34,280 nucleotides of DNA, from assembly GCA_035280085.1 (NCBI GenBank), contig DATEGM010000204.1, forward strand, positions 1 to 34,280, read 5' to 3'. Source of the DNA: Terriglobales bacterium. GTDB lineage: Bacteria; Acidobacteriota; Terriglobia; Terriglobales; Acidobacteriaceae. This document shows positions 3,578-33,550 of the stretch, piece after piece. The notes under the pieces were generated by a model. That model saw only the letters and a program-made list of their open reading frames with translations. It did no database searches and was not told where the DNA came from. The position numbers were made by a program, and so were the translations under genes. Numbering within the stretch: the first letter of the stretch is position 1; every line of letters starts with the position of its first letter.

Positions 3578-4996
3578 ATGTGGTTTGACACCCCGGCCTA
3601 CGTCTTCTTCCTGATTCTGGTGGTCGCCATCTACTGGCGGCTGGGACCAAGGCATCAAAACCTGCTGCTGCTCGCCGCCAGCTATGTTTTCTATGGCTGG
3701 TGGGACTACCGTTTCCTGCTGCTGATGATCGGCAGCACGACCATTGATTTCTTCATCGCACGCGCCATCGTCAAATCAGCTTCCCCAAGGGTCCGCCGCA
3801 CCCTGCTGATTGTCTCGCTGGTATGCAACTTCGGCATCCTCGGCGTCTTTAAGTACTTCAACTTTTTCGTGGATTCGTTCACCCACGTGTTGAATACGGC
3901 CGGCCTGCACGCCTCGCGGCCGTTCCTGCGCATCATCTTGCCGCCCGGAATCTCCTTTTACACCTTTCAGGAAGTTGCCTATGTGGTCGACGTTTATAAG
4001 GGCAAGGTCAAGGCCGCGGAGCGCTTCGTTGACTACGCGCTTTTCATCAGCCTGTTCCCCCACCTGATTGCGGGCCCGATCCAGCGTCCCAACCACCTGC
4101 TGCCGCAAGTCCAGGGCGCTCGCTCTTTCCGCTCCGACCAGTTCTTCGACGGCATCATGCTCATACTCCTCGGCCTATTCCGAAAGTGCGTCATAGCCGA
4201 CAACTGCGCTCTGCTGGCTGATGCCGTGTTCTCCGGCAGCTTCGGTAAGCCGGACCTGTTCCTCGCCGCCATTGGAGCGTATGCATTTGCCTGGCAAATC
4301 TATGGCGACTTCAGCGGTTATAGCGACATTGCCCGAGGCAGCGCGCAACTGCTGGGATTCCACTTCATGGTCAATTTCCGCCAGCCCTACCTCGCCACTT
4401 CCCTGCGCGACTTCTGGCGCAGATGGCATATCAGCCTGAGCACCTGGCTGCGCGACTATCTCTATATCCCCCTGGGCGGAAGCGCGGAAAAAGGGTACCG
4501 AACCTATCGCAATCTGCTCATCACCATGCTGCTGGGCGGATTGTGGCACGGTGCCAACTGGACTTTTGTGATCTGGGGCTGGCTGCACGGCGCGGTCCTT
4601 GCCGTGGAGCGCTACCTGAACGAACACATCAAGGCCCTGCGGCACATTCCCAATCTCAAGGGCATGCGCACCTGGACCCAGCGCATCGTGATCTTTCATC
4701 TGGTTTGCCTGGGCTGGATCTTTTTCCGTGCCGACTCGCTGGCCTCGGCGGTTGATCTGCTGCGGGGATTGGGCACCCTCTCCTGGCATCCCGAATATTT
4801 CATCGCTTTCAAGCTTTTGGCGCTTTTTGCGGTGCCTCTGTTTCTGGTTGACTTGTATCTGGAACACACGCAAGAGGAGTATCCGTTGGAACATCGCGCG
4901 CCTCTGCCCCGCATAGCGTTTGCGGTAAGCGCGCTGGCATTGATCGCATTCTTTTCGGCAAATCAGGCTCATGCGTTCATCTATTTCCAGTTCTAA
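3578..4996 (+). CDS. MBOAT-family membrane-bound O-acyltransferase (AlgI/DltB/PatA-like)
   Basis: 472 aa and polytopic. Family hallmarks are present: N-terminal FLILVVAIYW...ASYVFYGWWDYRFL, central FPHLIAGPI, and the histidine-containing block FWRRWHISLSTWLRDYLYIPLGG...LLGGLWHGANW. Confidence 0.9.
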   Translation: MWFDTPAYVFFLILVVAIYWRLGPRHQNLLLLAASYVFYGWWDYRFLLLMIGSTTIDFFIARAIVKSASPRVRRTLLIVSLVCNFGILGVFKYFNFFVDSFTHVLNTAGLHASRPFLRIILPPGISFYTFQEVAYVVDVYKGKVKAAERFVDYALFISLFPHLIAGPIQRPNHLLPQVQGARSFRSDQFFDGIMLILLGLFRKCVIADNCALLADAVFSGSFGKPDLFLAAIGAYAFAWQIYGDFSGYSDIARGSAQLLGFHFMVNFRQPYLATSLRDFWRRWHISLSTWLRDYLYIPLGGSAEKGYRTYRNLLITMLLGGLWHGANWTFVIWGWLHGAVLAVERYLNEHIKALRHIPNLKGMRTWTQRIVIFHLVCLGWIFFRADSLASAVDLLRGLGTLSWHPEYFIAFKLLALFAVPLFLVDLYLEHTQEEYPLEHRAPLPRIAFAVSALALIAFFSANQAHAFIYFQF

Positions 4997-6054: not shown

Positions 6055-7242
6055 TCACTTGGTAATCTGCCGTTGAATGACGCTTTGATAAGCCTCCATC
6101 AAGATGCGGGCACGCGCTTGCGGCGAGTACCGCGAAGTGATCAGTTCGCGGCCATGAAGCGTGATGTTCTTACGCAAGCTGGCATCCGTTAACACGCTCT
6201 GAAGAGCCTGCGCCATGGCCCGGGGATCGCCTGGGGGAACCAGTAGGGCAGACTTTTTGTCCTCTACCATTTCTGGCACCCCGCCAACCGCGGTTGCCAC
6301 CGTAGGGACACCAGCGGCGAGGGCTTCCAGCAGAACGTTAGGCGAACCCTCGCTGGTGGACGAGATGGCCAGCACATCCGCGGCCCGAAAGTAAGGCCGC
6401 ACGTCGTGAACATGGCCCGGCAACGTTAGGTTTCCCAGCAAGTGCAGACTGCGCGCGCGCTCCTCAATGCGCGGCTTCTCTGGGCCCTCCCCCGCGATAA
6501 TGAGCCGAATCCGCGCATTGGGTGTCAGATCTCTCAGTTGGGCCACGGCTGCGACCAGGTCGGGAAATGCCTTCTCCCGGGAGAGGCGGCCGACAGCGAG
6601 AATGGTGCGCTCTCCGTCCCCCGGGGCAGATTCAGCGCAAGCAGCCGGGGGCTCAGCGTGATTTTGCGGAACCGCACTTATCCAATCCTCTGAAATAGCG
6701 TTGTAGACCACGGAAATGCGCCACGGCGGCACTCCGATATCGCGGAGCTGCTGCGCGAACGGCTCACACATGGTGATGATCTGAGCAGGCAGGCGCAAGG
6801 ACCATCTATCCAGTTGGTTGTAAACCAGGGTCCTTCTCGCATCTCGCGTATAGCCATGATGAAAGGCAATCCACGAGCAGCTTCGCCAAGCTCCCGAAAG
6901 ACGCACCAGGAAATGCGACTTCACGTGGTGGGTTTCAATGATGTGCGGCCGAATCTTTCTCACCAGATCGCGCAATGCGGGGAGGATCCTTAGATCGAAG
7001 GGAAACCGCTCATGAATCGGTTCCATCTCCAGGCCGAGCTCACGCGCCGCGTCAAACAATCGATTGCTGCCTGCCTCTTGACCGGAAGAACGTACAAAGC
7101 CCGCCAGGGTGACCGCCGGCGGCGCATCCGTGCTGCGGGAAACCGCACAAAATTCCAGAACATTTCTGGCCGGGCCGGAGACATTCTCACCCTCCAAAAG
7201 AATGAGCACGCGAAGAGGCCGCGGTTGCGAGCGGTTATCCAT
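6055..7242 (-). CDS. GT4-family (GT-B, Glycos_transf_1) glycosyltransferase
   Basis: 395 aa. C-terminal half carries VGRLSREKAF...IIAGEGPE...ISSTSEGSPNVLLEALAAGVPTVATAVGGVPEMV (E-x7-E motif region). Start overlaps the stop of the upstream GT4 by 8 nt. Confidence 0.85.
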   Translation of the reverse strand: MDNRSQPRPLRVLILLEGENVSGPARNVLEFCAVSRSTDAPPAVTLAGFVRSSGQEAGSNRLFDAARELGLEMEPIHERFPFDLRILPALRDLVRKIRPHIIETHHVKSHFLVRLSGAWRSCSWIAFHHGYTRDARRTLVYNQLDRWSLRLPAQIITMCEPFAQQLRDIGVPPWRISVVYNAISEDWISAVPQNHAEPPAACAESAPGDGERTILAVGRLSREKAFPDLVAAVAQLRDLTPNARIRLIIAGEGPEKPRIEERARSLHLLGNLTLPGHVHDVRPYFRAADVLAISSTSEGSPNVLLEALAAGVPTVATAVGGVPEMVEDKKSALLVPPGDPRAMAQALQSVLTDASLRKNITLHGRELITSRYSPQARARILMEAYQSVIQRQITK

Positions 7243-8509
7243 GACGTTGCGCCAGCAAATCGTGATGCACGCGGTAAAGGGACTCGCCCAGAGCAGCCCA
7301 GTCGTAGCGCGCCGCTACCAGTTCACGGCCGCGGGCGGAAAGCTGGCGCCACAGAGCCGGTGAGCCGTGAAGGCGAGACACGGCGGCGGCGATTTCATCG
7401 GGAGTATCGCCGAGAAGAAAATCCTGCTCGGGCTTGACCTCCAATCCTTCCGCGCCGATGCGGCTGGCCACCACCGGCACACCGGCGGCCATCGCTTCCA
7501 GAATCTTCAGGCGCGTGCCTCCAGCAATGCGCAAGGGCGCCAGCGCCACCAGTGCTTTGCGGTAGTAGGGTCGGACATCTTCCACGGTGCCGGTCACGGT
7601 CACCCCCGGCACTTGCTCCAGTTTGCGCACCGCCGCCACCGGCCGGGAACCCACGATGACGAATTGCAATCCAGGAGCCGCAGCATGAATTTTCGGCCAA
7701 ACCTCGCGCCCAAAGTAAGTCGCGGCATCAACGTTGGGGTGAAAGTCCATAGAGCCGACAAAGACGATGCTGGCGCGTTCCTTCTCGGCGGTGTGCGCTT
7801 GTTCTGCGTAGAACCCCACGTCTACCCCGTTTTCGATAACTTGTGCGTTTATCTGTGGGACCATGCTGCGAAGCAGTTGCAGGTCGCGGTCACTCACCGT
7901 GACGTGAGCATCGCAATCGCTCAGGAACTTCTGCTCGGCAGCGCGCAGTAGGCCCGAAGTTCTTCTGGCGTAGATATTCTGCAGCCGATTCGGAGCATGT
8001 TCGCTGAAGCGTGCCATGCGGTTCGACTCCACATCGTGCCAGTCGCAGACAACCAGAGGACGTGACGGCGCGGAGCGAATTATGGGCAGGTAGCCCGCCA
8101 GATGAATACCTTCGATCTGCACGATGTCGAAAGAATGCTCGTTTACCAGGCGACGCAACTCGCCGGCGACTTTTTGATCGTGGTAGTTCAGGATGCTGAG
8201 AGGCGTGGGACCAACAAAGCCGCGCACCAGGTTCCATGCAGAGTATCGGCCGCGTTGCGCCACCAGCCGAATGGCTTCCGGCGGCAGATTCAAGCCGTTT
8301 CCTGACTGCGGCAGCGTATCGAACTCTTCTGCCTGGCAGATTCCCAGGAACGTGAGCGAGGCGCGAGAAGCCAATGCGCGCAAAAGATAATAGTCGCGAA
8401 TACGGGCGCCGCTGTCGGTTGGCCAAAAAATCCTGGGCGAAAAGAAAAGAATACGCATGCTGGCGGTTGCACTGTTCGCGGAACCCGCGGGTGCGCCGGC
8501 TGAAGTCAT
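7235..8509 (-). CDS. GT4-family glycosyltransferase
   Basis: 424 aa. MRILFFSPRIFWPTDSGARIRDYYLLRAL N-terminal GT-B fold signature and a C-terminal LKILEAMAAGVPVVASRIGAEGL nucleotide-sugar binding block. The ATG at 8509 has an AGG-containing purine run upstream. An alternative ATG at 8458 would give the typical MRIL... N-terminus. Confidence 0.8.
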   Translation of the reverse strand: MTSAGAPAGSANSATASMRILFFSPRIFWPTDSGARIRDYYLLRALASRASLTFLGICQAEEFDTLPQSGNGLNLPPEAIRLVAQRGRYSAWNLVRGFVGPTPLSILNYHDQKVAGELRRLVNEHSFDIVQIEGIHLAGYLPIIRSAPSRPLVVCDWHDVESNRMARFSEHAPNRLQNIYARRTSGLLRAAEQKFLSDCDAHVTVSDRDLQLLRSMVPQINAQVIENGVDVGFYAEQAHTAEKERASIVFVGSMDFHPNVDAATYFGREVWPKIHAAAPGLQFVIVGSRPVAAVRKLEQVPGVTVTGTVEDVRPYYRKALVALAPLRIAGGTRLKILEAMAAGVPVVASRIGAEGLEVKPEQDFLLGDTPDEIAAAVSRLHGSPALWRQLSARGRELVAARYDWAALGESLYRVHHDLLAQRHG

Positions 8510-10126: not shown

Positions 10127-12397
10127 GTGAGCAAGAACTTCGAATTGCTGCGACAAGCAGGCATTAATGCCGACAACGGCAGCGCCTTGGCGGCGCCGCG
10201 CCGGGAAATTCTGGTGCCGGAACCGGTACCGGTGAACCCCCTTCCGCGAGTGCGCGAGAAGAGCGGAGCAGAGTGGCTGCGGGCCTTGGAAGTCCTGCGC
10301 AAACACTGGCATCTTTCTGCGCTATTTGCGGCGGCAGTCATCTGTTCCGTGATCGTGGTAACTTTCAGCATCAAACCGGTTTACGCTCCCGTGGCCCAAC
10401 TGGAAGTGGATCCGCCTGGCGAGACCTTCTCGCTGGATGGAGGAAACCAGGGATACAGCGATTCGGAATATCTGGAAACTCAAGCCAAGAACCTGAAAAG
10501 TGACAGCCTGGCTGTGAATGTAATTCGCCGGCTACATCTGGACCAGAATCCGGCTTTCGTGCGCAGCGCCGAGCCGCGGCAAACGTCCGCAACTGACCCC
10601 GCCAACTACCAGCTGTCGCCCGCAGAAAACTCCGCCCTGGGCGCTTTCCGGGCGCATTTTACGGTGAAGCGCGATACTTCCAGCCGCCTGATCGCGGTGA
10701 GTTTTGCCAGCACGGACCCGAAACTGGCGGCGCTGGTAACCAACACAGCGGTGGACACCTTCATTGACGACACTTACCGGGACCGCCACGACGCCATCAT
10801 GCGCTCTTCGGCATGGCTGGCCCGTCAACTGGACGATATTCGCACGCGCATGGAAGAGTCCAACCGCGTCCTGGCCGACTATCAGAAATCCATCGGCGTG
10901 GCCGACGTGGATGACAACAAGAGCACGTTCACCGAGGAGATGGGCGAACTGAACCGGCAACTGACGCAAGCCCAGGCCGATCGCATTCAGCTCGAAGCGC
11001 TGCTGCGCAGCGTGCAGGCGGGAAGCCCGGATGTTCTGCCGGAAATCCGCAACAATCCTGTAGTGCAGCAATTGAGCACGCAGCTGGCGCAAGTGCGGGC
11101 GTCGCTTTCACAGGCGCGGGTCATCTACGGAGTAAACCATCCCAAGGTAAAAGAACTGCAAAATCAAGCTGACGAGCTGCAGTCACAGCTGGAAGGGCAG
11201 AAGACAGCAGTACTGGGCTCCATCCGCAGCAGTTATGCCGCAGCCAAGGCCCGCGAGCAGTTGATGAATTCGGAAATCAAAGGTACCAGCGACCAGCTGA
11301 GCCAGATGGCCCGCTACAACGCCCTCAAGAAAGAAGCGCAGGCTAACTCTGACCTGTACAACAACCTCTATGCGCGAGTGAAAGAGTCGGGAATCGCGGC
11401 TGCGTCAAAAACCAGCAACTTGCGCATGGCTGATCAGGCGCGGGTGTTGGATTCTCCCAGCTATCCCAACCGGCCTTTAGACATTGGCCTGGGCATCCTT
11501 GTCGCTCTGGCCGGCGGCATTGGACTGGCGTTTGTGCGCGAGCAGTTCGACACCCGGCTGTTCACGCCCGAAGACGTGCGCGACTGGATTGGCACCTCCA
11601 ATGTGGCCATTGTGCCGCTGTTCTTCGGCAGCAACGGGCAACCGCTTCCTCCTGGCCAATCGCGCTCCGCGGTTGCAGCGGGTGCCTCCGCAAACGGCAA
11701 ACTTGCTCCCGGTGTCCGCTTCCTGCTGGATCGGCCGCATTCTCCTGAGGCCGAAGCTCTGCGCTCCCTTTACACATCGGTCATGCTCTCCCGCCCGGGC
11801 AATCCGCCCCAGGTGGTCCTGGTTGTCTCCTCCTTCCCCGGCGAAGGCAAGACCACCGTGGCAGTGAATCTGGCGATGGCGATGGCGCAGCACGGCACAA
11901 CCTGCCTGGTAGACGCTGACCTGCGGCGCGGAAGAGTTGCTTCTGCCTTCGGAATGAGCAGCGAAGTGGGCCTGAGCGATGTCCTGATCGGCACCAGCAC
12001 TCTGGAGCAGGCGATGGTTTCTGTGGCCAGCGTGCCTAATCTGAACGTAATTCCGGCCCACGCCGGCAGCGTACAGGCCGGGCAACTGGTGTGCTCGGAC
12101 TCCATGCGAAACCTGCTCGAAGAACTGCGGCAGAGGTTTCAATTTGTGGTGGTGGATTCTGCTCCTATCCTTCCCTTCGCTGACGGCCGCGCCTTGTCCA
12201 ATCTGGCTGATGGATTGATTTTCGTGGGCCGTTCGGGAATGACCACCAAGGACGTGGTGCTGCGGAGCCTGGATTTGCTGCGCGAAGTGCACTCCGCCCC
12301 GGTGCTGGAGTTTGTGCTGAACGCGGCCGATCTCAACGCGCCGCAATACCGCTATTACCAGTACGCGTACGACTACTATCAGCCGGCGGCCAAGTAA
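10127..12397 (+). CDS. Wzc/GumC-like polysaccharide co-polymerase fused to a bacterial tyrosine (BY) autokinase
   Basis: 756 aa with GTG start and GGAG 8 nt upstream. TM1 (LSALFAAAVICSVIVVTFSI), a long coiled-coil-like periplasmic Wzz region, then TM2 (IGLGILVALAGGIGLAFV). The cytoplasmic P-loop domain has Walker A SSFPGEGKTTVAVNLA, Walker A' LVDADLRRG and Walker B FVVVDSAPILP. The C-terminal tail QYRYYQYAYDYYQPAAK has 7 Tyr in the last 17 residues. Confidence 0.9.
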   Translation: MSKNFELLRQAGINADNGSALAAPRREILVPEPVPVNPLPRVREKSGAEWLRALEVLRKHWHLSALFAAAVICSVIVVTFSIKPVYAPVAQLEVDPPGETFSLDGGNQGYSDSEYLETQAKNLKSDSLAVNVIRRLHLDQNPAFVRSAEPRQTSATDPANYQLSPAENSALGAFRAHFTVKRDTSSRLIAVSFASTDPKLAALVTNTAVDTFIDDTYRDRHDAIMRSSAWLARQLDDIRTRMEESNRVLADYQKSIGVADVDDNKSTFTEEMGELNRQLTQAQADRIQLEALLRSVQAGSPDVLPEIRNNPVVQQLSTQLAQVRASLSQARVIYGVNHPKVKELQNQADELQSQLEGQKTAVLGSIRSSYAAAKAREQLMNSEIKGTSDQLSQMARYNALKKEAQANSDLYNNLYARVKESGIAAASKTSNLRMADQARVLDSPSYPNRPLDIGLGILVALAGGIGLAFVREQFDTRLFTPEDVRDWIGTSNVAIVPLFFGSNGQPLPPGQSRSAVAAGASANGKLAPGVRFLLDRPHSPEAEALRSLYTSVMLSRPGNPPQVVLVVSSFPGEGKTTVAVNLAMAMAQHGTTCLVDADLRRGRVASAFGMSSEVGLSDVLIGTSTLEQAMVSVASVPNLNVIPAHAGSVQAGQLVCSDSMRNLLEELRQRFQFVVVDSAPILPFADGRALSNLADGLIFVGRSGMTTKDVVLRSLDLLREVHSAPVLEFVLNAADLNAPQYRYYQYAYDYYQPAAK

Positions 12398-15677: not shown

Positions 15678-16349
15678 ATGACCAAAGCAGCACAGGTTTT
15701 GAGCCAAGCGTCTTATCCGCCGGCCAGCGGCTTCACTGGGTGGAATAACTCATACCGCAAACGGCTCTTGGATCTGGCGCTGGCAGGCGTTCTGCTCATC
15801 CTCCTCTCCCCCCTGTTCGTCATCGTTGCCATAGGAGTCGCCCTCGACTCATCCGGACCGGTACTCTTCCGCCAGAAACGCATGGGCAAAGATGGGCGGC
15901 TGTTTTGGGTATTCAAGTTCCGCACCATGACGCATGATTCGACGGGTAACGGTCTAAAGATCACCCGCGCCGGAGACTTACGAATTACGCGTCTGGGCCG
16001 GGTGTTGCGGAAGACCAAACTAGACGAACTGCCGCAGCTCTTTAACGTGCTGCGGGGAGATATGAGCTTCGTAGGCCCCCGGCCAGACCTTCCGGAATTC
16101 CTGGAATCTCTGACGCCGCCTCAAGCCGACATTCTGTGCCTTCGGCCGGGAATTACTGGAATGGCGTCCATTCAGTACCGCAATGAAGAACAGTTGCTCG
16201 CCAATGTTGAACCGGAAGCCTTGCCGCGGTATTACTCCGAGCATGTTCTGCCGGTCAAAATAGGGATCGATCTGGAATATGCCCAGCGAGCAGGATTTCT
16301 TAGCGATATTGGCGTGCTGTTTGGAACTGTTCGGGCAATGCTGGGTTAA
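15678..16349 (+). CDS. Small (PglC/WbaP-C-terminal-type) polyprenyl-phosphate sugar-phosphate transferase, initiating enzyme
   Basis: 223 aa. One N-terminal re-entrant hydrophobic helix (LALAGVLLILLSPLFVIVAIGVAL) followed by GPVLFRQKRMGKDGRLFWVFKFRTM and KTKLDELPQLFNVLRGDMSFVGPRP, the bacterial sugar transferase family signature. Confidence 0.9.
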   Translation: MTKAAQVLSQASYPPASGFTGWNNSYRKRLLDLALAGVLLILLSPLFVIVAIGVALDSSGPVLFRQKRMGKDGRLFWVFKFRTMTHDSTGNGLKITRAGDLRITRLGRVLRKTKLDELPQLFNVLRGDMSFVGPRPDLPEFLESLTPPQADILCLRPGITGMASIQYRNEEQLLANVEPEALPRYYSEHVLPVKIGIDLEYAQRAGFLSDIGVLFGTVRAMLG

Positions 16350-28072: not shown

Positions 28073-30265
28073 ATGCAAGGTTCCCCTAAGGCAGGTAAGG
28101 CATTTCTATTGTTCGCCGCGGTGTTGCTGCTGGTGACAGCGCTTCCCGCCCAGGTGTCAGTTCCGACGCAGTCGAATAACCCGGCTCGCACGGGCTGGAA
28201 CAACCAGGAGACCATTCTTAATACCTCCAACGTGAACATGGCCAATTTCGGCAAGCTTTTTGCCCTGAATGTGGATGGCTATATTTACGCCCAGCCGCTG
28301 TACGTGTCCAATGTCACGATTAACGGCACGACACACAACGTGGTGTACGTGGCCACTGAGCATAACAGCGTCTATGCTTTTGACGCCGACAGTCTGGGTC
28401 CAGCCCTTTGGCAGGTGAGTGTTAACGGAGCCGGAACGCCGGTTGACAGCAACGATATCTGCGCGGCCACGGGACAGGCGAACTATTGCGCCGACCTGAT
28501 TCCCGAGGTGGGCATCACCGCGACCCCGGTGATTGACCCGTCTACGAAAACTATGTATGTCGTTGCCGAGACCAAAGATTCCTCCTATCACTTCAAACTG
28601 CATGCGCTGGACATCACTTCGGGCGCGGAGCGGCCTGGCAGTCCGGTGGAAATTGATGGCAGCGACCAGACGCCCCCGCTCAACCAACTGATTCAGCTCA
28701 ACCGGCCCGGCTTGCTCCTGCTGAATGGTAAGGTGTACACCGCTTTCGGCTCCAACGGCGACTTTGCCGTAAACAGTGTGTATTGGCACGGCTGGATTTT
28801 TGCGTACGACGCAACCACCCTGCAACGAAAAGCTGTGTTTGACGTTTCGCCCAACAATGGATATCTGGCCGCGGGCGGCATTTGGCAAGGCGGCAAGGGC
28901 TTAGTCAGCGACGGTACCTACATCTATGTGGCCACCAGTAACGGCAGCTCTACCGACTGGCAAGGCGGGAATGACTACGCCTCCAGCTATTTGAAACTCG
29001 ACCAGAATTTGAACGTGGTGGATTGGTATGCGCCCAACAACCAGTCCTACCTGAACACCAATCCCGGCAACGTTGACATCGGCTCCGGCGGCCCGGTGCT
29101 GCTGCCCAGTTCCCCAGCCGTGCTGGTTGGCGGCGGCAAAGATGGCATTTTGCGGGTGATGAACACCGGTAACCTGGGCAAGTACAACGCAGCTAACGAC
29201 AATAACCTGCAGAACTTTCAGGCCACCAACGCCTACCCGAACGGAATGATTTTCGGCGGGCCCGTCTTCTGGAATAGTCCTCAGAATGGTGGCGTGCTTT
29301 ATCTGTGGGGTCCTGGAGATGTAATTAGAGGCTGGAAGCTGGTGGGTACCACCTTCCAGACTACTCCGGTCACACTCGGTACTATTCAAAATCAGCCGAG
29401 CGAGGATACTCTGGCTGCTCTGTCTATCTCCTCCAACGGTAGCCAGGCGGGAAGCGGCATTGTCTGGGCCTCACGCTTTCTGTCCCTGCCCCCTTCGGGT
29501 ACAAACAGCAAGGTTGCTCCCGGCGTTCTCACCGCCTTTGATGCCGATAATTTAGGCACTGAATTGTGGGATAGCCAGCAGAACTCCAATCGTGACGCGG
29601 TGAACGAGTATGCCAAGTTCGTGCCTCCCACGGTCGCGAATGGGAAGGTGTACCTGCCCACTTGGGTGGGGCCGAACGTTATGGGACAAAACTCTGGACA
29701 ACTGCTGGTCTACGGCCTGCTCAATTCCGTAAAGCAGGTTTTCAGTCTGAGCGGATCGCCCAGTGCCGTGACCGTCAGTCCGGGGCAGTCGGCAAAATAC
29801 ACCATCACTATTAACAGCAACGGCTTTAACGGCGCGGTTAACCTTGCCTGCTCGGCGCTGCCTGCGGGTGCGAACTGCCAGTTCGCCAGCAACCCCACCA
29901 ACGCAGGCTCGTCCACGACGTTGACCATTACTACCCAGGCGCCTTCCACCGCGCTTCTGCGGCCGGCGCCAGGAAAATGGAGCCTGCTCCCGTTGTACGG
30001 AGTGTTGTTGCCACCCCTCGGCCTCGTCCTGGCGGGTGCGGGCCTGGGCTCGCGCTGGCGCAAGCTCATGCTGGGGCTCTTCGCCGTGCTGCTGCTTTCT
30101 CTGGTTCTTGTGGCCTGCGGCGGTGGCGGTTCCTCCTCTGGTGGCGGCGGAGGTGGAGGTGGCGGCGGTGGCGGCACGCCCGCAGGCTCCTATAGCGTGA
30201 TCGTGACTGGAACTCCGAGCAGCGGCTCGCAGCAGTTCACCACCATAACTTTGACCGTGCAGTAG
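28073..30265 (+). CDS. Secreted PQQ-like-repeat beta-propeller protein with C-terminal Ig-like module interrupted by a hydrophobic hairpin (paralog 1)
   Basis: 730 aa. Signal peptide MQGSPKAGKAFLLFAAVLLLVTALPAQV. About 530 aa contain recurring beta-propeller blade signatures (VVYVATEHNSVYAFDAD, MYVVAETKD..YHFKLHALD, NGKVYTAFGS, WHGWIFAYD, YIYVATSNG, GKDGILRVM, ANGKVYLPT). Then comes an Ig-like beta-rich segment, two hydrophobic helices, poly-Gly, and a final TLTVQ strand. It shares many identical blocks with the next gene. Confidence 0.7.
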   Translation: MQGSPKAGKAFLLFAAVLLLVTALPAQVSVPTQSNNPARTGWNNQETILNTSNVNMANFGKLFALNVDGYIYAQPLYVSNVTINGTTHNVVYVATEHNSVYAFDADSLGPALWQVSVNGAGTPVDSNDICAATGQANYCADLIPEVGITATPVIDPSTKTMYVVAETKDSSYHFKLHALDITSGAERPGSPVEIDGSDQTPPLNQLIQLNRPGLLLLNGKVYTAFGSNGDFAVNSVYWHGWIFAYDATTLQRKAVFDVSPNNGYLAAGGIWQGGKGLVSDGTYIYVATSNGSSTDWQGGNDYASSYLKLDQNLNVVDWYAPNNQSYLNTNPGNVDIGSGGPVLLPSSPAVLVGGGKDGILRVMNTGNLGKYNAANDNNLQNFQATNAYPNGMIFGGPVFWNSPQNGGVLYLWGPGDVIRGWKLVGTTFQTTPVTLGTIQNQPSEDTLAALSISSNGSQAGSGIVWASRFLSLPPSGTNSKVAPGVLTAFDADNLGTELWDSQQNSNRDAVNEYAKFVPPTVANGKVYLPTWVGPNVMGQNSGQLLVYGLLNSVKQVFSLSGSPSAVTVSPGQSAKYTITINSNGFNGAVNLACSALPAGANCQFASNPTNAGSSTTLTITTQAPSTALLRPAPGKWSLLPLYGVLLPPLGLVLAGAGLGSRWRKLMLGLFAVLLLSLVLVACGGGGSSSGGGGGGGGGGGGTPAGSYSVIVTGTPSSGSQQFTTITLTVQ
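29951..30175 (+). other. Insertion-like segment inside paralog 1: TM helix, RWRK, second helix ending in lipobox-like LVAC, then GGGGSSSG12
   Basis: Encodes ALLRPAPGKWSLLPLYGVLLPPLGLVLAGAGLGSRWRKLMLGLFAVLLLSLVLVACGGGGSSSGGGGGGGGGGGG. An in-frame ATG at 30068 begins MLGLFAVLLLSLVLVAC|GGGG, which reads like a complete lipoprotein signal peptide (Cys codon 30116-30118). Confidence 0.6.
30119..30175 (+). repeat. Low-complexity GGN/TCN codon tract (Gly4-Ser3-Gly12)
   Basis: ggc ggt ggc ggt tcc tcc tct ggt ggc ggc gga ggt gga ggt ggc ggc ggt ggc ggc. Mixed synonymous codons mean this is not a perfect microsatellite. It generates the poly-Pro shadow ORF on the opposite strand. Confidence 0.9.
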
Positions 30266-30295: not shown

Positions 30296-33200
30296 ATGAC
30301 CCTTAAGGCCCTTCCCTGCTCTGTTGATCAACTACAAGGCTGCTCGTGCTCCAGTGGCGAACGCATGGCCAACCTAGTGCGCTGGCTACCTGTGCTGCTG
30401 GTGGCGTTGTGCCTTGTTCCTCTTGCCTCAGCCCAAACCTGCAACTCCCCTAGCCCTGTGCCTGTTTGGACCAACCACAACGACAACTGCCGTACAGGCC
30501 AAATCCAGGAGACCAGCCTTACTACTTCCAACGTAAACGTCAGCAACTTCGGCAAACTGTTCATGCGCACGGTGGACGGCTACATTTACGCCCAGCCGCT
30601 GTACGTGCCGGGGCTGACCATCGGCGGCAAGACCCGCAACGTGGTCTTTGTAGCCACGGAGCACAATAGTGTCTACGCCTTCGATGCCGATGATCCCACG
30701 GCATCGGCGCCGCTGTGGCATGTCACGCCCACGACTCTGGGAACCTCTGTGCCCAGCGGCGACGTGTGCATCGGCTTGTCCATTGCTGAATGCCCTTATA
30801 AGGACCTGCTCCCGGAAATCGGCATCACCGGCACCCCCGTGATTGACACGGCAAGCGGCACTATTTATGTGGTCGCTAAGAGCAAAAACACCAGCAACAA
30901 CACATACCACTTCAAATTGCATGCCCTCGACCTGGTAACCGGAGGCGAAAAATTCGGCGGCCCGGTTGAGATCACTGCCAGCGTATCCGGCACAGGGTCG
31001 GGAAGTTCGGGCGGCACCATTACCTTCAAGGCGCTGAACCAGATGAACCGGCCGGGGCTGCTCTTGCTGAACGGCATGGTCTACGTTGGCTTTGGCTCGG
31101 TGGGCGACGTGCCTCCGTGGCACGGCTGGATTTTCGCCTACACCGCTTCCAACCTGCTGGCAACTCCGACAGTATTCATCGCTACACCTAATGGCGACAG
31201 TGCGGGCTTCTGGGCCGCGGGACAGGGTCTGGCGGGCAACATCGTAAATAACACAGCGTGGATTTATGGCGCCACAAGCAATGGACTGTTTGATGTGAAC
31301 ACCGGGGGCAAGGACTATGGCGATACCATCCTCAAGCTCAACGCCTCTTCCGGCCTGACGGTGGCCGATTACTTCACGCCCCACGACCAAAGCTTTTTGG
31401 ATACCGGCAACGTGGATCTGGGCTCCGGCGGGCCGATGCTGCTGCCCAACACCACTGATCTGGTGAACATCGGCAAGGATGGATACTTGCGCCTGATGGA
31501 CACCACGACAGGAAAAATGGGCGGATTCAATGCCACTACGGATCAGAATTTGCAGAACATTTTAGTGACCAATGGCACAAATTCTTTCGCCTTCATGGGC
31601 AGCCCCATCTACTGGAACAGCCCTAATAATGGGCCGGTCATCTACTTCTGGGGCCCCGACGACTTCCTCAAAGCATATAAGTTTGTGAATGGATTGTTCC
31701 AAACTACACCGGTGTCGCAGGGCACCATCCAGGGCACGGCCGGCTATTCCAACAGCATGCCGCTGTCGCTTTCCGCGAACGGCAGCCAAAGCGGTACGGG
31801 AATCGTGTGGGCCACCGCTCCCCTGGGAGATGCCAGCGAGCAGACGGTAACAGGAATCGTGCGCGCCTTTGATGCCACCGACCTCGGCAACGAATTGTGG
31901 GACAGCAACCAGAATCCTGGCCGCGATGCCCTGGGCAACTATGCCAAGTTCACGCCGCCGACGATTGCCAATGGAAAGGTATACGTGCCCACCTTCTCTG
32001 ACGCGCTGGTGGTGTACGGGTTGAACCCTCCTGCGGCGAGCAGCATCACCTTTATGCAGGTGGCGGCCGCCACGCCGCAATCCAACTCCGCCAGTGTTCC
32101 GGTTGCTTACCCCCAGGCGGAAGTGGCCGGCGACCTGAACGTTGTCGTGGTCGGCTGGAACGACACGACCTCCTCCGTCAGTTCGGTCACCGATACGCTC
32201 GGGAATACATACACCCTCGCGGTCGGCCCGACCACCGCTTCCGGCGCGCGGCAGTCCATCTATTACGCCAAGAACATCAAGGGCGGCAGCAATACGGTTA
32301 CGGCCAACTTCACCCAAGCCGCGGTCTATCCTGACATTCGGGTTCTGGAGTACGCGGGCGCCGATACCACTAACCCTCTTGACGTGACTGCCGCTGCCGT
32401 CGGCAGCAGCACCACTGCGAACAGTGGCTCGGCCACCACCACCGCTGCCAACGACCTCATCTTTGGCGCCGACACTGTCGCCACGGGTACCCCCGGGCCT
32501 GGTGCGGGATTCACCACTCGCATCATCACTACTCATGATTCCGATCTCGCCGAAGACGAGATCGGCCCCACGCCCGGTTCTTACTCTGCCACGGCTCCGC
32601 TTTCCCCGAGCGGATATTGGGTCATGCAGATGGCCGCGTTCAAGGTTCAAGGCAGCGGCAGCGGCACTCCTGCGCCGACCGTTAGTTCGGTCTCGCCCAA
32701 CTCCGGCTCCACGAATGGCGGCACGAGTGTGACCATTACGGGCACGAACTTTTCAGCCGGCGCTACCGTCACCTTCGGCGGCACCGCTGCGAGCAACGTG
32801 AATCTAGTAAGCAGCACCTCAATTACCGCCACCACTCCGGCCCACGCCGCCGGCGCGGTCAACGTGGTGGTCACCAATAGCGGCGGGCCCAGCGGAACGC
32901 TGACGAACGGCTTTACCTACACTACGTCCACCGGCAATCCCATCACCTTCGTCCAGGTTGCCGCTGCCACGCCCCAGGGCTCTTTCGCCGCGGTTCCGGT
33001 GGGCCCACTAACGAAAGCTCAAACGGCCGGCAATTTGAACCTGGTAGTAGTGGGCTGGAACGACACTACGTCTTCAGTTTCTTCTGTCACCGATTCGTTG
33101 GGGAACACTTACTTCCTGGCAGTAGGGCCGACCACCGCTTCCGGCGCGCGGCAATCCATTTACTACGCCAAGAACATCAAGGCCGGCAGCAACACGGTAA

Positions 33201-33550
33201 CTGTAAACTTCAGCCAGGCGGCGGCCTACCCTGATGTTCGCGTTCTGGAATACTCGGGCGCAAGCACCACCAGCCCCATTGATCAAGTCATTCCTGGCGT
33301 CGGCAGCAGCACCACCGCCAGCTGCGGACCCCTAACCACCTCGGCCGCCAACGAGGTGATTTTCGCTGCCGATACTATCGCCACCGGCACTCCCGGCCCG
33401 GGCGCCGGCTTTACTGCCCGCATCATCACCACCCATGATTCCGACCTGGCTGAAGACAAGCCAGCAGCCACGGCCGGGTCTTACTCCGCTACCGCCCCCG
33501 TCTCTCCTGGTGGCTACTGGGTCATACAGATGGTCACCATAAAACAGTGA
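30296..33550 (+). CDS. Secreted PQQ-like-repeat beta-propeller protein with C-terminal [202-aa module]-IPT/TIG-[202-aa module] (paralog 2)
   Basis: 1084 aa. Blocks identical or near-identical to paralog 1: NFGKLF, VDGYIYAQPLYV, VATEHNSVYAFDAD, PEIGITGTPVID, YHFKLHALD, NRPGLLLLNG, WHGWIFAY, GSGGPMLLP, FQTTPV, NGSQSGTGIVWA, ELWDSNQN, YAKFTPPTIANGKVYVPT. ATG 30296 has GGAGAGG (30286-92) upstream. A canonical signal peptide (MANLVRWLPVLLVALCLVPLASA|Q) only begins at the in-frame ATG 30365. Confidence 0.7.
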   Translation: MTLKALPCSVDQLQGCSCSSGERMANLVRWLPVLLVALCLVPLASAQTCNSPSPVPVWTNHNDNCRTGQIQETSLTTSNVNVSNFGKLFMRTVDGYIYAQPLYVPGLTIGGKTRNVVFVATEHNSVYAFDADDPTASAPLWHVTPTTLGTSVPSGDVCIGLSIAECPYKDLLPEIGITGTPVIDTASGTIYVVAKSKNTSNNTYHFKLHALDLVTGGEKFGGPVEITASVSGTGSGSSGGTITFKALNQMNRPGLLLLNGMVYVGFGSVGDVPPWHGWIFAYTASNLLATPTVFIATPNGDSAGFWAAGQGLAGNIVNNTAWIYGATSNGLFDVNTGGKDYGDTILKLNASSGLTVADYFTPHDQSFLDTGNVDLGSGGPMLLPNTTDLVNIGKDGYLRLMDTTTGKMGGFNATTDQNLQNILVTNGTNSFAFMGSPIYWNSPNNGPVIYFWGPDDFLKAYKFVNGLFQTTPVSQGTIQGTAGYSNSMPLSLSANGSQSGTGIVWATAPLGDASEQTVTGIVRAFDATDLGNELWDSNQNPGRDALGNYAKFTPPTIANGKVYVPTFSDALVVYGLNPPAASSITFMQVAAATPQSNSASVPVAYPQAEVAGDLNVVVVGWNDTTSSVSSVTDTLGNTYTLAVGPTTASGARQSIYYAKNIKGGSNTVTANFTQAAVYPDIRVLEYAGADTTNPLDVTAAAVGSSTTANSGSATTTAANDLIFGADTVATGTPGPGAGFTTRIITTHDSDLAEDEIGPTPGSYSATAPLSPSGYWVMQMAAFKVQGSGSGTPAPTVSSVSPNSGSTNGGTSVTITGTNFSAGATVTFGGTAASNVNLVSSTSITATTPAHAAGAVNVVVTNSGGPSGTLTNGFTYTTSTGNPITFVQVAAATPQGSFAAVPVGPLTKAQTAGNLNLVVVGWNDTTSSVSSVTDSLGNTYFLAVGPTTASGARQSIYYAKNIKAGSNTVTVNFSQAAAYPDVRVLEYSGASTTSPIDQVIPGVGSSTTASCGPLTTSAANEVIFAADTIATGTPGPGAGFTARIITTHDSDLAEDKPAATAGSYSATAPVSPGGYWVIQMVTIKQ
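32045..32650 (+). repeat. Intragenic duplicated module, copy 1 (606 bp / 202 aa)
   Basis: ITFMQVAAATPQ...VVVGWNDTTSSVSSVTDTLGNTYTLAVGPTTASGARQSIYYAKNIKGGSNTVTANF...RVLEYAGA...GTPGPGAGFTTRIITTHDSDLAEDE...GYWVMQMAAFKVQ. It aligns without gaps to copy 2. Long identical nucleotide runs include ccgaccaccgcttccggcgcgcggca and tacgccaagaacatcaagg. Confidence 0.9.
32651..32941 (+). other. IPT/TIG-like Ig-fold domain between the two duplicated modules
   Basis: PAPTVSSVSPNSGSTNGGTSVTITGTNFSAGATVTFGGTAASNVNLVSSTSITATTPAHAAGAVNVVVTNSGGPSGTLTNGFTYT matches the IPT/TIG pattern (P.I..v.P..G...GGt.vtI.G.nF....v.fGg..a..v...s.t.i.c.tP......v.V.v...g......ftY). Confidence 0.7.
32942..33547 (+). repeat. Intragenic duplicated module, copy 2 (606 bp / 202 aa)
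   Basis: ITFVQVAAATPQ...VVVGWNDTTSSVSSVTDSLGNTYFLAVGPTTASGARQSIYYAKNIKAGSNTVTVNF...RVLEYSGA...GTPGPGAGFTARIITTHDSDLAEDK...GYWVIQMVTIKQ*. It is the same length as copy 1, offset 897 bp. By eye, roughly three quarters of residues are identical. Confidence 0.9.

Follow-up and report, generated by a model that had tools for sequence, protein, structure and literature searches.

Why should a protein that appears to be exported end in an immunoglobulin (Ig)-like domain interrupted by two hydrophobic helices, the second of which reads like the signal peptide of a lipoprotein? The question is raised by a gene in a stretch of 34,280 nucleotides from a Terriglobales bacterium (contig DATEGM010000204.1), which at its full length we call the window. 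The gene is the open reading frame (ORF) at 28073-30265 (+), with a product of 730 amino acids (aa), and our subject is its final 174 codons (aa 557-730). We conclude that an Ig-like domain is split here, as profile searches indicate, at a fixed loop by a conserved insert of two hydrophobic helices, a basic loop and a Cys. The last 117 residues probably form a lipo-invert C-terminal anchoring module that would work through export, a membrane hairpin and lipidation, a reading to which we assign a probability of roughly 0.6.

Results

An Ig-like domain in two pieces

Translation reproduced, at the same positions, every segment listed in an earlier reading of the bare sequence (hereafter the first-pass annotation). 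The first Ig strands are read from F557 to S625 (29741-29947), with a conserved Cys pair, C593/C602, in this N-terminal piece, and the C-terminal piece reads TPAGSY...TLTVQ (30176-30262; TPAGSYSVIVTGTPSSGSQQFTTITLTVQ) and is followed by the stop codon. We searched with a hidden Markov model (HMM) of 97 positions made from 300 uninterrupted copies of the repeat in large multi-repeat proteins, which a profile search had recovered. Its two halves, 1-68 and 69-97, are contiguous in the profile and lie 77 aa apart in the protein. An identical split at the same loop was found in 156 homologues, with inserts of 49-79 aa (median 68). In the homologues P0125, P0138, P0151, P0159 and P0105 the insert is confined to the last repeat and the internal repeats are unsplit (e.g., '...TVTVTTSASTSVGTYALVVTGTSG...'), and a verrucomicrobial orthologue, L023, has the unsplit form.

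Structure prediction pointed the same way. An AlphaFold2 (AF2) model of the tail, made from a 28-sequence alignment, had its first strands at a predicted local distance difference test (pLDDT) score of 95+ and its last two at 93-98, with two helices between them and a disordered Gly tether. A full-length model (107 sequences) agreed with it, the last two strands scoring about 89-91. In Foldseek searches single Ig domains of 99-109 aa aligned over 184-186 columns of the 186-residue tail model, with target-normalised template modeling (TM) scores of 0.60-0.66, and these spans cover both sides of the insert, which suggests that both pieces belong to one sandwich. A single Ig-like domain, divided into these two beta segments by a helical hairpin, is what the first-pass annotation had proposed; the profile of the unsplit repeat and models that place both segments confidently (pLDDT about 90-98) on either side of the two helices bear this out.

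The unsplit Cys-pair repeat is itself widespread: a profile search gave 37,409 cluster representatives at E<=1e-3, and one protein can have as many as 63 copies. Searches of it against Pfam and NCBIfam returned nothing above cutoff.

The helices, the lipobox and the tether

The two helices of the insert differ in character. Helix 1 reaches a mean Kyte-Doolittle hydropathy of 1.6-1.85 over 19 aa and has a pattern conserved in homologues, YAxWLP(L/I)xGLxLLGxG followed by R/K. Helix 2 reaches a mean of up to 2.75, matches a PROSITE-like lipobox expression and runs into a strict lipobox, L-V-A-C, at C682. With lipoprotein signals in general (Lgt/LspA/Lnt; PROSITE PS51257, DOLOP) the window protein shares a basic n-region (RWRK), an uncharged h-region of 17 aa (limit 7-22), a lipobox of the form [LVI][ASTVI][GAS]C and a Gly/Ser tether. 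It departs from them in place: such signals are N-terminal, whereas this one occupies residues 660-682 of 730, behind another membrane helix and with only 48 residues after it, and would yield a lipopeptide, not a lipoprotein. The suggestion that the second helix is a lipoprotein-type signal thus agrees with the lipobox rules, in the window protein and in its homologues. Beyond the Cys, the Gly12 tract (30140-30175) is coded by an imperfect 9-bp GGTGGCGGC repeat with GGY/GGA codons (Tandem Repeats Finder score 51), and against both of the close orthologues described below the tether shows one 3-bp indel. An indel of this size in a repeat-coded Gly tract suggests that tether length drifts by slippage.

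How well is the lipobox conserved? We compiled 179 tails with a screen that was blind to positions -3 to -1. The Cys was required by every screen and selection, and its presence at the end of helix 2 in all tails therefore tests nothing independently. At position -1, 173 of the 179 tails have A, G or S, and at position -3, 107 have Leu; about 155-160 have Gly at positions +2/+3, and 144 fit the PROSITE-like lipobox. Among 65 homologues the uncharged run before the Cys has 15-24 residues, the inter-helix loop has a net charge of +1 to +7 (median +4) and the stretch beyond the Cys measures 32-60 residues. The full invariance of 'CGGG' in our first alignment was partly due to the word-indexed search, and the variants CGES, CSGG and CRGR are also seen.

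The same element order recurs, in one reading frame, in about 180 homologues on varied passenger domains. Among the best 119 propeller homologues the tail is present on 107, with five more recognized by eye, all in a single frame. Taken with the curated HMM match described below (E 7e-22) and a frame that is kept in two close orthologues with third-position-biased substitutions, this recurrence puts the order of the elements, as judged from sequence comparison, far beyond chance.

Several of the homologues have peculiarities of their own. In P0147 (1640 aa; residues ~1500-1640) an extra domain of ~85 residues, Big_2-like by eye, separates the lipobox Cys from the last two Ig strands, which indicates that the post-Cys fragment can carry its own folded domain. 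In another Terriglobales metagenome-assembled genome (MAG) the gene L006 2-370 (+), directly upstream of a propeller orthologue, also ends in a lipo-invert tail; genes bearing the tail can therefore be neighbours. On two long-read MAG contigs (L010 7917-10414 and L025 7946-10711) tail-bearing genes appear to be broken into two or three adjacent ORFs, the examples being a propeller split at ~8285-8393 and a glyoxal oxidase with TIG domain and tail; frameshift errors or pseudogenes are the probable explanation. Lipoproteins of the same lineage with N-terminal signals came to four doubtful candidates in ~200 kb of loci, too few for comparison.

A family already in NCBIfam

The tail has an entry in NCBIfam. 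With 77.9 bits against a curated cutoff of 37 bits, aa 614-730 align to positions 2-113 of the 113 in model NF058595 ('invert_tail: lipo-invert putative C-terminal anchoring domain-containing protein'). The match ends at residue 730 of 730, and the protein has an N-terminal export signal (hydrophobic aa 5-32). Between model and window protein we could detect no difference: the order of the elements is the same, the match is full-length and above cutoff, and it lies at the extreme C-terminus. By this match the window protein is a member of NF058595 and the feature is one already catalogued, with the function of the family labelled 'putative'. The same model scores 63-117 bits on tails of FG-GAP, choice-of-anchor D, CoaZ and SBBP-propeller passengers; Pfam searches with the tail gave nothing above threshold.

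The first-pass annotation had offered three readings of the tail: (a) a hairpin that returns the last strands to the outside, (b) a nested lipoprotein gene and (c) cleavage at the lipobox that leaves two products. The NF058595 name states essentially (a) and (c), and our demonstration of the split Ig domain adds mechanistic detail without making the tail a novel type of element. Genuine and unusual-looking as the feature is, a curated NCBIfam model had already captured it.

The gene and its surroundings

The ATG at 28073 has a Shine-Dalgarno (SD)-like AAGGTGA 4 nt upstream, and two orthologues, L001 (92% identity) and L002 (89%), have the same length as the 730-aa protein. The features of the gene are given in Table 1, together with those located in the exopolysaccharide locus that precedes it. 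We place the cleavage site of the signal peptide, provisionally, from the small residues at ALPA. The passenger's best Foldseek matches were 7-bladed propellers and propeller-plus-Ig sialidases, which are generic (TM <=0.46). Pfam PQQ_2 matches the passenger weakly, a sequence search of the PDB with it gave no match, and its homologues are publicly named only 'hypothetical protein' or 'PQQ-binding-like beta-propeller repeat protein'. The propeller has at least 7,977 relatives. The next gene (30296-33550, +; 1084 aa) encodes a paralogue of the same propeller without a lipo-invert tail, in which a TIG/'choice-of-anchor Z' repeat (NF058597, 43.2 bits) lies between two copies of a module of ~200 aa.

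Table 1. Features of the tail-bearing gene and of the upstream locus, in window coordinates.
Feature	Positions	Strand	Residues	Basis and remarks
Whole gene	28073..30265	+	730 aa	Signal peptide, beta-propeller passenger, terminal split Ig-like domain with inserted anchor; from the ORF list
Sec-type signal peptide, N-terminal (predicted)	28073..28150	+	~1-26	MQGSPKAGKAFLLFAAVLLLVTALPA, then Q; hydropathy windows at aa 5-32 >1.5; AF2 helix 5-23
Beta-propeller passenger	28190..29722	+	~40-550	AF2 all-beta, pLDDT mostly 85-97
Ig-like domain, N-terminal piece	29741..29941	+	557-623	Strands A to ~E; unsplit-repeat HMM 1-68, 57 bits; AF2 pLDDT 95+
Linker, Ig domain to membrane	29942..29977	+	624-635	PSTALLRPAPGK; low pLDDT; outside the Ig profile match
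Helix 1	29978..30049	+	W636-G659	WSLLPLYGVLLPPLGLVLAGAGLG; hydrophobic, containing Pro and Gly; hydropathy, AF2 helix
Basic cluster SRWRK	30050..30064	+	660-664	Doubles as n-region of the lipoprotein-type signal; predicted cytoplasmic
Helix 2 (h-region)	30065..30115	+	L665-A681	LMLGLFAVLLLSLVLVA; ends in lipobox L-V-A; M666 is the ATG at 30068
Cys682	30116..30118	+	682	Putative diacylglyceryl-modified Cys, +1 of the presumed signal peptidase II site
Gly/Ser tether GGGGSSSG12	30119..30175	+	683-701	pLDDT <50
Ig-like domain, C-terminal piece	30173..30262	+	701-730	Last two strands, reaching the protein C-terminus; HMM 69-97, 11.3 bits, independent E-value 1.8e-5
DltB-like MBOAT	3578-4996			Exopolysaccharide locus
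Wzc-like tyrosine kinase/polysaccharide co-polymerase	10127-12397			Exopolysaccharide locus
Priming transferase	15678-16349			Exopolysaccharide locus

The gene stands at the end of the exopolysaccharide locus (window 1-28026), which also encodes a 4,6-dehydratase fusion, an aminotransferase, an O-antigen-ligase-like protein, a flippase and several glycosyltransferases (GTs). Many of the best matches in the locus are to families associated with XrtA/PEP-CTERM systems, namely TIGR03087, TIGR03018, TIGR03007 and TIGR03097 among them, and all lie below their cutoffs. The first-pass annotation had likened the GT of family 4 at 7235-8509 to transferases of PEP-CTERM/exosortase loci. This held insofar as its closest family is TIGR03087, a GT of the XrtA system. 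The score (268.7) falls short of the cutoff (316.65), however, and a scan of 20 of the window's non-overlapped long ORFs (each at least 150 aa) showed no exosortase.

Discussion

How might a lipoprotein-type signal operate from this position? In the mechanism that we propose the N-terminal signal peptide would export the propeller and the first five or so Ig strands, as hydropathy and the conserved Cys pair suggest, and helix 1 would then act as a stop-transfer segment, running from outside to inside, with SRWRK kept in the cytoplasm. Helix 2 would re-cross from inside to outside and put a tail of ~48 residues back on the outer face, where the last two strands would complete the Ig sandwich. 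This topology we infer from hydropathy and the positive-inside rule. To the cytoplasm SRWRK, helix 2 and L-V-A-C would present a lipoprotein signal peptide misplaced to the C-terminal end: Cys682 would receive diacylglycerol through Lgt, and LspA, the signal peptidase II, would probably cut between A681 and C682, two steps that the conservation of the lipobox suggests. The passenger would be tethered by its own hairpin and/or by the lipidated C-terminal peptide, which, on a tether of ~20 Gly/Ser residues, would be held since two integral strands of the Ig domain are its own. Given the profile and AF2 evidence for the split domain and the fit to the lipoprotein rules, the hairpin and cleavage readings are compatible with each other and with the NF058595 name, and the first-pass interpretation as a whole is partly supported.

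That the tail serves for anchoring is suggested by what replaces it elsewhere. Bacteroidota orthologues of the same propeller end in type A sorting domains of the type IX secretion system (T9SS; TIGR04183, 41-52.6 bits, cutoff 23), and elsewhere in the Ig-repeat superfamily the C-terminus is a single transmembrane helix or a T9SS-like domain. Interchangeable C-terminal ends are a hallmark of C-terminal anchoring signals, which argues for the tail being an anchoring or sorting device, and the Bacteroidota ends fit such a role. The T9SS domain would be functionally analogous and stands at the same place on orthologous propellers, but it is unrelated in fold and machinery, being a beta-sandwich C-terminal domain that PorU removes, and the window protein has no T9SS domain. 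The tail is, to judge from its distribution and substitutions, C-terminal, portable and under purifying selection.

The mechanism can be carried one step further, although here we are doubtful and consider the extension rather less than probable: LspA would cut at Cys682 and a triacylated peptide of 49 residues would stay bound via the last two Ig strands, as a non-covalent C-terminal lipid anchor made by the ordinary lipoprotein machinery with no transpeptidase, and removal of the remaining hairpin, if it occurs, might open the way for the Lol system to carry the product to the outer membrane or surface. An analogy may be drawn with the Ig-like pilins of chaperone-usher pili, which use donor-strand complementation; engineered split Ig-like domains also exist. 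If LspA cuts, the Ig fold would likewise be completed by the strands of a separate polypeptide. The window pieces differ in being synthesised as a single chain; folding would precede any cut, and no chaperone or polymerisation would be involved.

A number of observations weigh against the lipo-invert mechanism as we have set it out. The hydrophobicity of helix 1 is no more than moderate, its Pro and Gly content is high and AF2 models it with low confidence. The pairing of strands between the two Ig pieces is deduced from pLDDT and Foldseek spans, not from contacts, and the conservation of the C-terminal piece relative to the N-terminal piece does not differ between split and unsplit forms (ratios of 1.13 and 1.10). 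The strict DOLOP lipobox fits only 99 of the 179 tails. Position -1 is Arg in the three propeller homologues P0224, P0234 and P0285 (QARC, QVRC, LVRC), and Asn in one or two others; such residues would make poor LspA sites and are hard to reconcile with canonical cleavage, and P0224 nevertheless scores 93.8 bits on NF058595. If LspA does cut, moreover, the hairpin would still hold the passenger and the benefit of the lipid would be left unexplained. Lastly, we found no paper on lipo-invert tails or on an internal lipobox, in a search in which most queries failed and which does not establish absence from the literature; literature on choice-of-anchor proteins gave nothing relevant.

Could the tail be a helical-hairpin anchor and nothing else? 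Both helices would then stay in the cytoplasmic membrane with no cut and no lipid, and the Cys and the small residue at -1 would serve helix packing or positioning at the interface. Two hydrophobic helices with a basic loop do obey the positive-inside rule and would by themselves suffice to anchor the protein, and the few homologues with Arg or Asn at -1, being incompatible with canonical LspA cleavage, are accommodated without difficulty. Packing, on the other hand, gives no reason to expect that helix 2 always closes exactly on a Cys, nor does it account for G, A or S at -1 in 97% of tails, a Leu-rich -3 and a Gly/Ser tether, which jointly are the signature of a lipoprotein, and it was for the lipoprotein-like feature that the NF058595 curators named the family. 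Near-exclusive G/A/S at -1 is a feature of cleavage sites and favours processing over a mere hairpin, and we accordingly consider the hairpin alone unlikely. Still further from our expectation is a nested lipoprotein gene of 65 codons starting at ATG 30068, or a pair of genes joined by faulty assembly, an explanation we find scarcely credible. An in-frame ATG does stand at the start of helix 2, and the sub-ORF by itself resembles a small prolipoprotein. Codon 30068, however, is ATG in the window, CTG in L001 and GTG in L002; of 65 homologues only 10 have a Met close to where helix 2 begins; and no SD motif precedes 30068, in contrast to AAGGTGA before 28073 and GGAGAGG before 30296. The long frame is uninterrupted in three independent MAG orthologues and in more than 150 homologues of separate assemblies, third positions account for 34 of 47 substitutions in L001 and 18 of 34 in L002, and the sole indel is the 3-bp one in the Gly tract. 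The nested gene can thus be set aside, as can the concern that a stop codon or frameshift had been lost in assembly.

A different kind of processing would be that by a dedicated enzyme, exosortase-, sortase- or rhombosortase-like, that recognises helix 1 (LPxxG-like, then the basic cluster) and/or CGGG; the hairpin would be excised and the passenger left on a lipopeptide or envelope acceptor, possibly for display on the outer membrane or surface. Tripartite C-terminal sorting signals include PEP-CTERM/exosortase, LPXTG/sortase, GlyGly-CTERM/rhombosortase, MYXO-CTERM and the archaeal PGF-CTERM. The tail is like them in its C-terminal place on secreted 'choice-of-anchor' passengers, and helix 1 with its conserved pattern and basic cluster resembles their transmembrane-plus-basic-tail portion. 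In addition, CGGG is conserved beyond what a lipobox needs, the same passenger bears a T9SS surface-sorting domain in Bacteroidota, and the gene lies in an exopolysaccharide locus whose family 4 GT is nearest to XrtA-system families. Unlike those signals, however, the tail has no match to a signature motif or HMM (PEP-CTERM and LPXTG were tested), and helix 1 is not terminal, being followed by a second helix and 48 more residues. The PEP-CTERM model (TIGR02595) gave no match at E<=1 on the protein or at E<=10 on isolated helix-1 segments; the window sequence is LLPPLG, with 71 residues after helix 1 and 66 after the basic cluster. The window segment likewise had no match to the LPXTG model (TIGR01167; threshold >=15.9 bits including the LPXTG motif), and two homologue segments that reached 13.4-14.6 bits were below that threshold and covered only the transmembrane/basic part (model positions 11-33). 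Several family members, P0007 and P0010 among them, do not have the LPxxG pattern. No exosortase or sortase was detected among the scanned window ORFs, the XrtA-type matches of the locus are all sub-cutoff, and the neighbourhoods of two other tail-bearing genes share no conserved candidate enzyme. These results tell against the first-pass view of helix 1 and the basic cluster as an exosortase or sortase signal, and we judge a dedicated processing enzyme to be quite improbable.

What, then, would a lipo-invert tail mean for the bacteria that carry it? Terriglobia (Acidobacteriota) are among the most abundant bacteria of soil, and to our knowledge little is known of how they display proteins at their surface. 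A great many of their large Ig-repeat, propeller, FG-GAP and 'choice-of-anchor' proteins carry the tail, which would thus be a portable anchor. Should the cleaved, lipid-anchored form prove true, Terriglobia would have in it their equivalent of T9SS or exosortase anchoring. Provided that the lipobox is used, a split beta-sandwich would allow C-terminal lipid anchoring with Lgt and LspA alone, a principle of use in design and a point of cell-envelope biology that can be put to the test.

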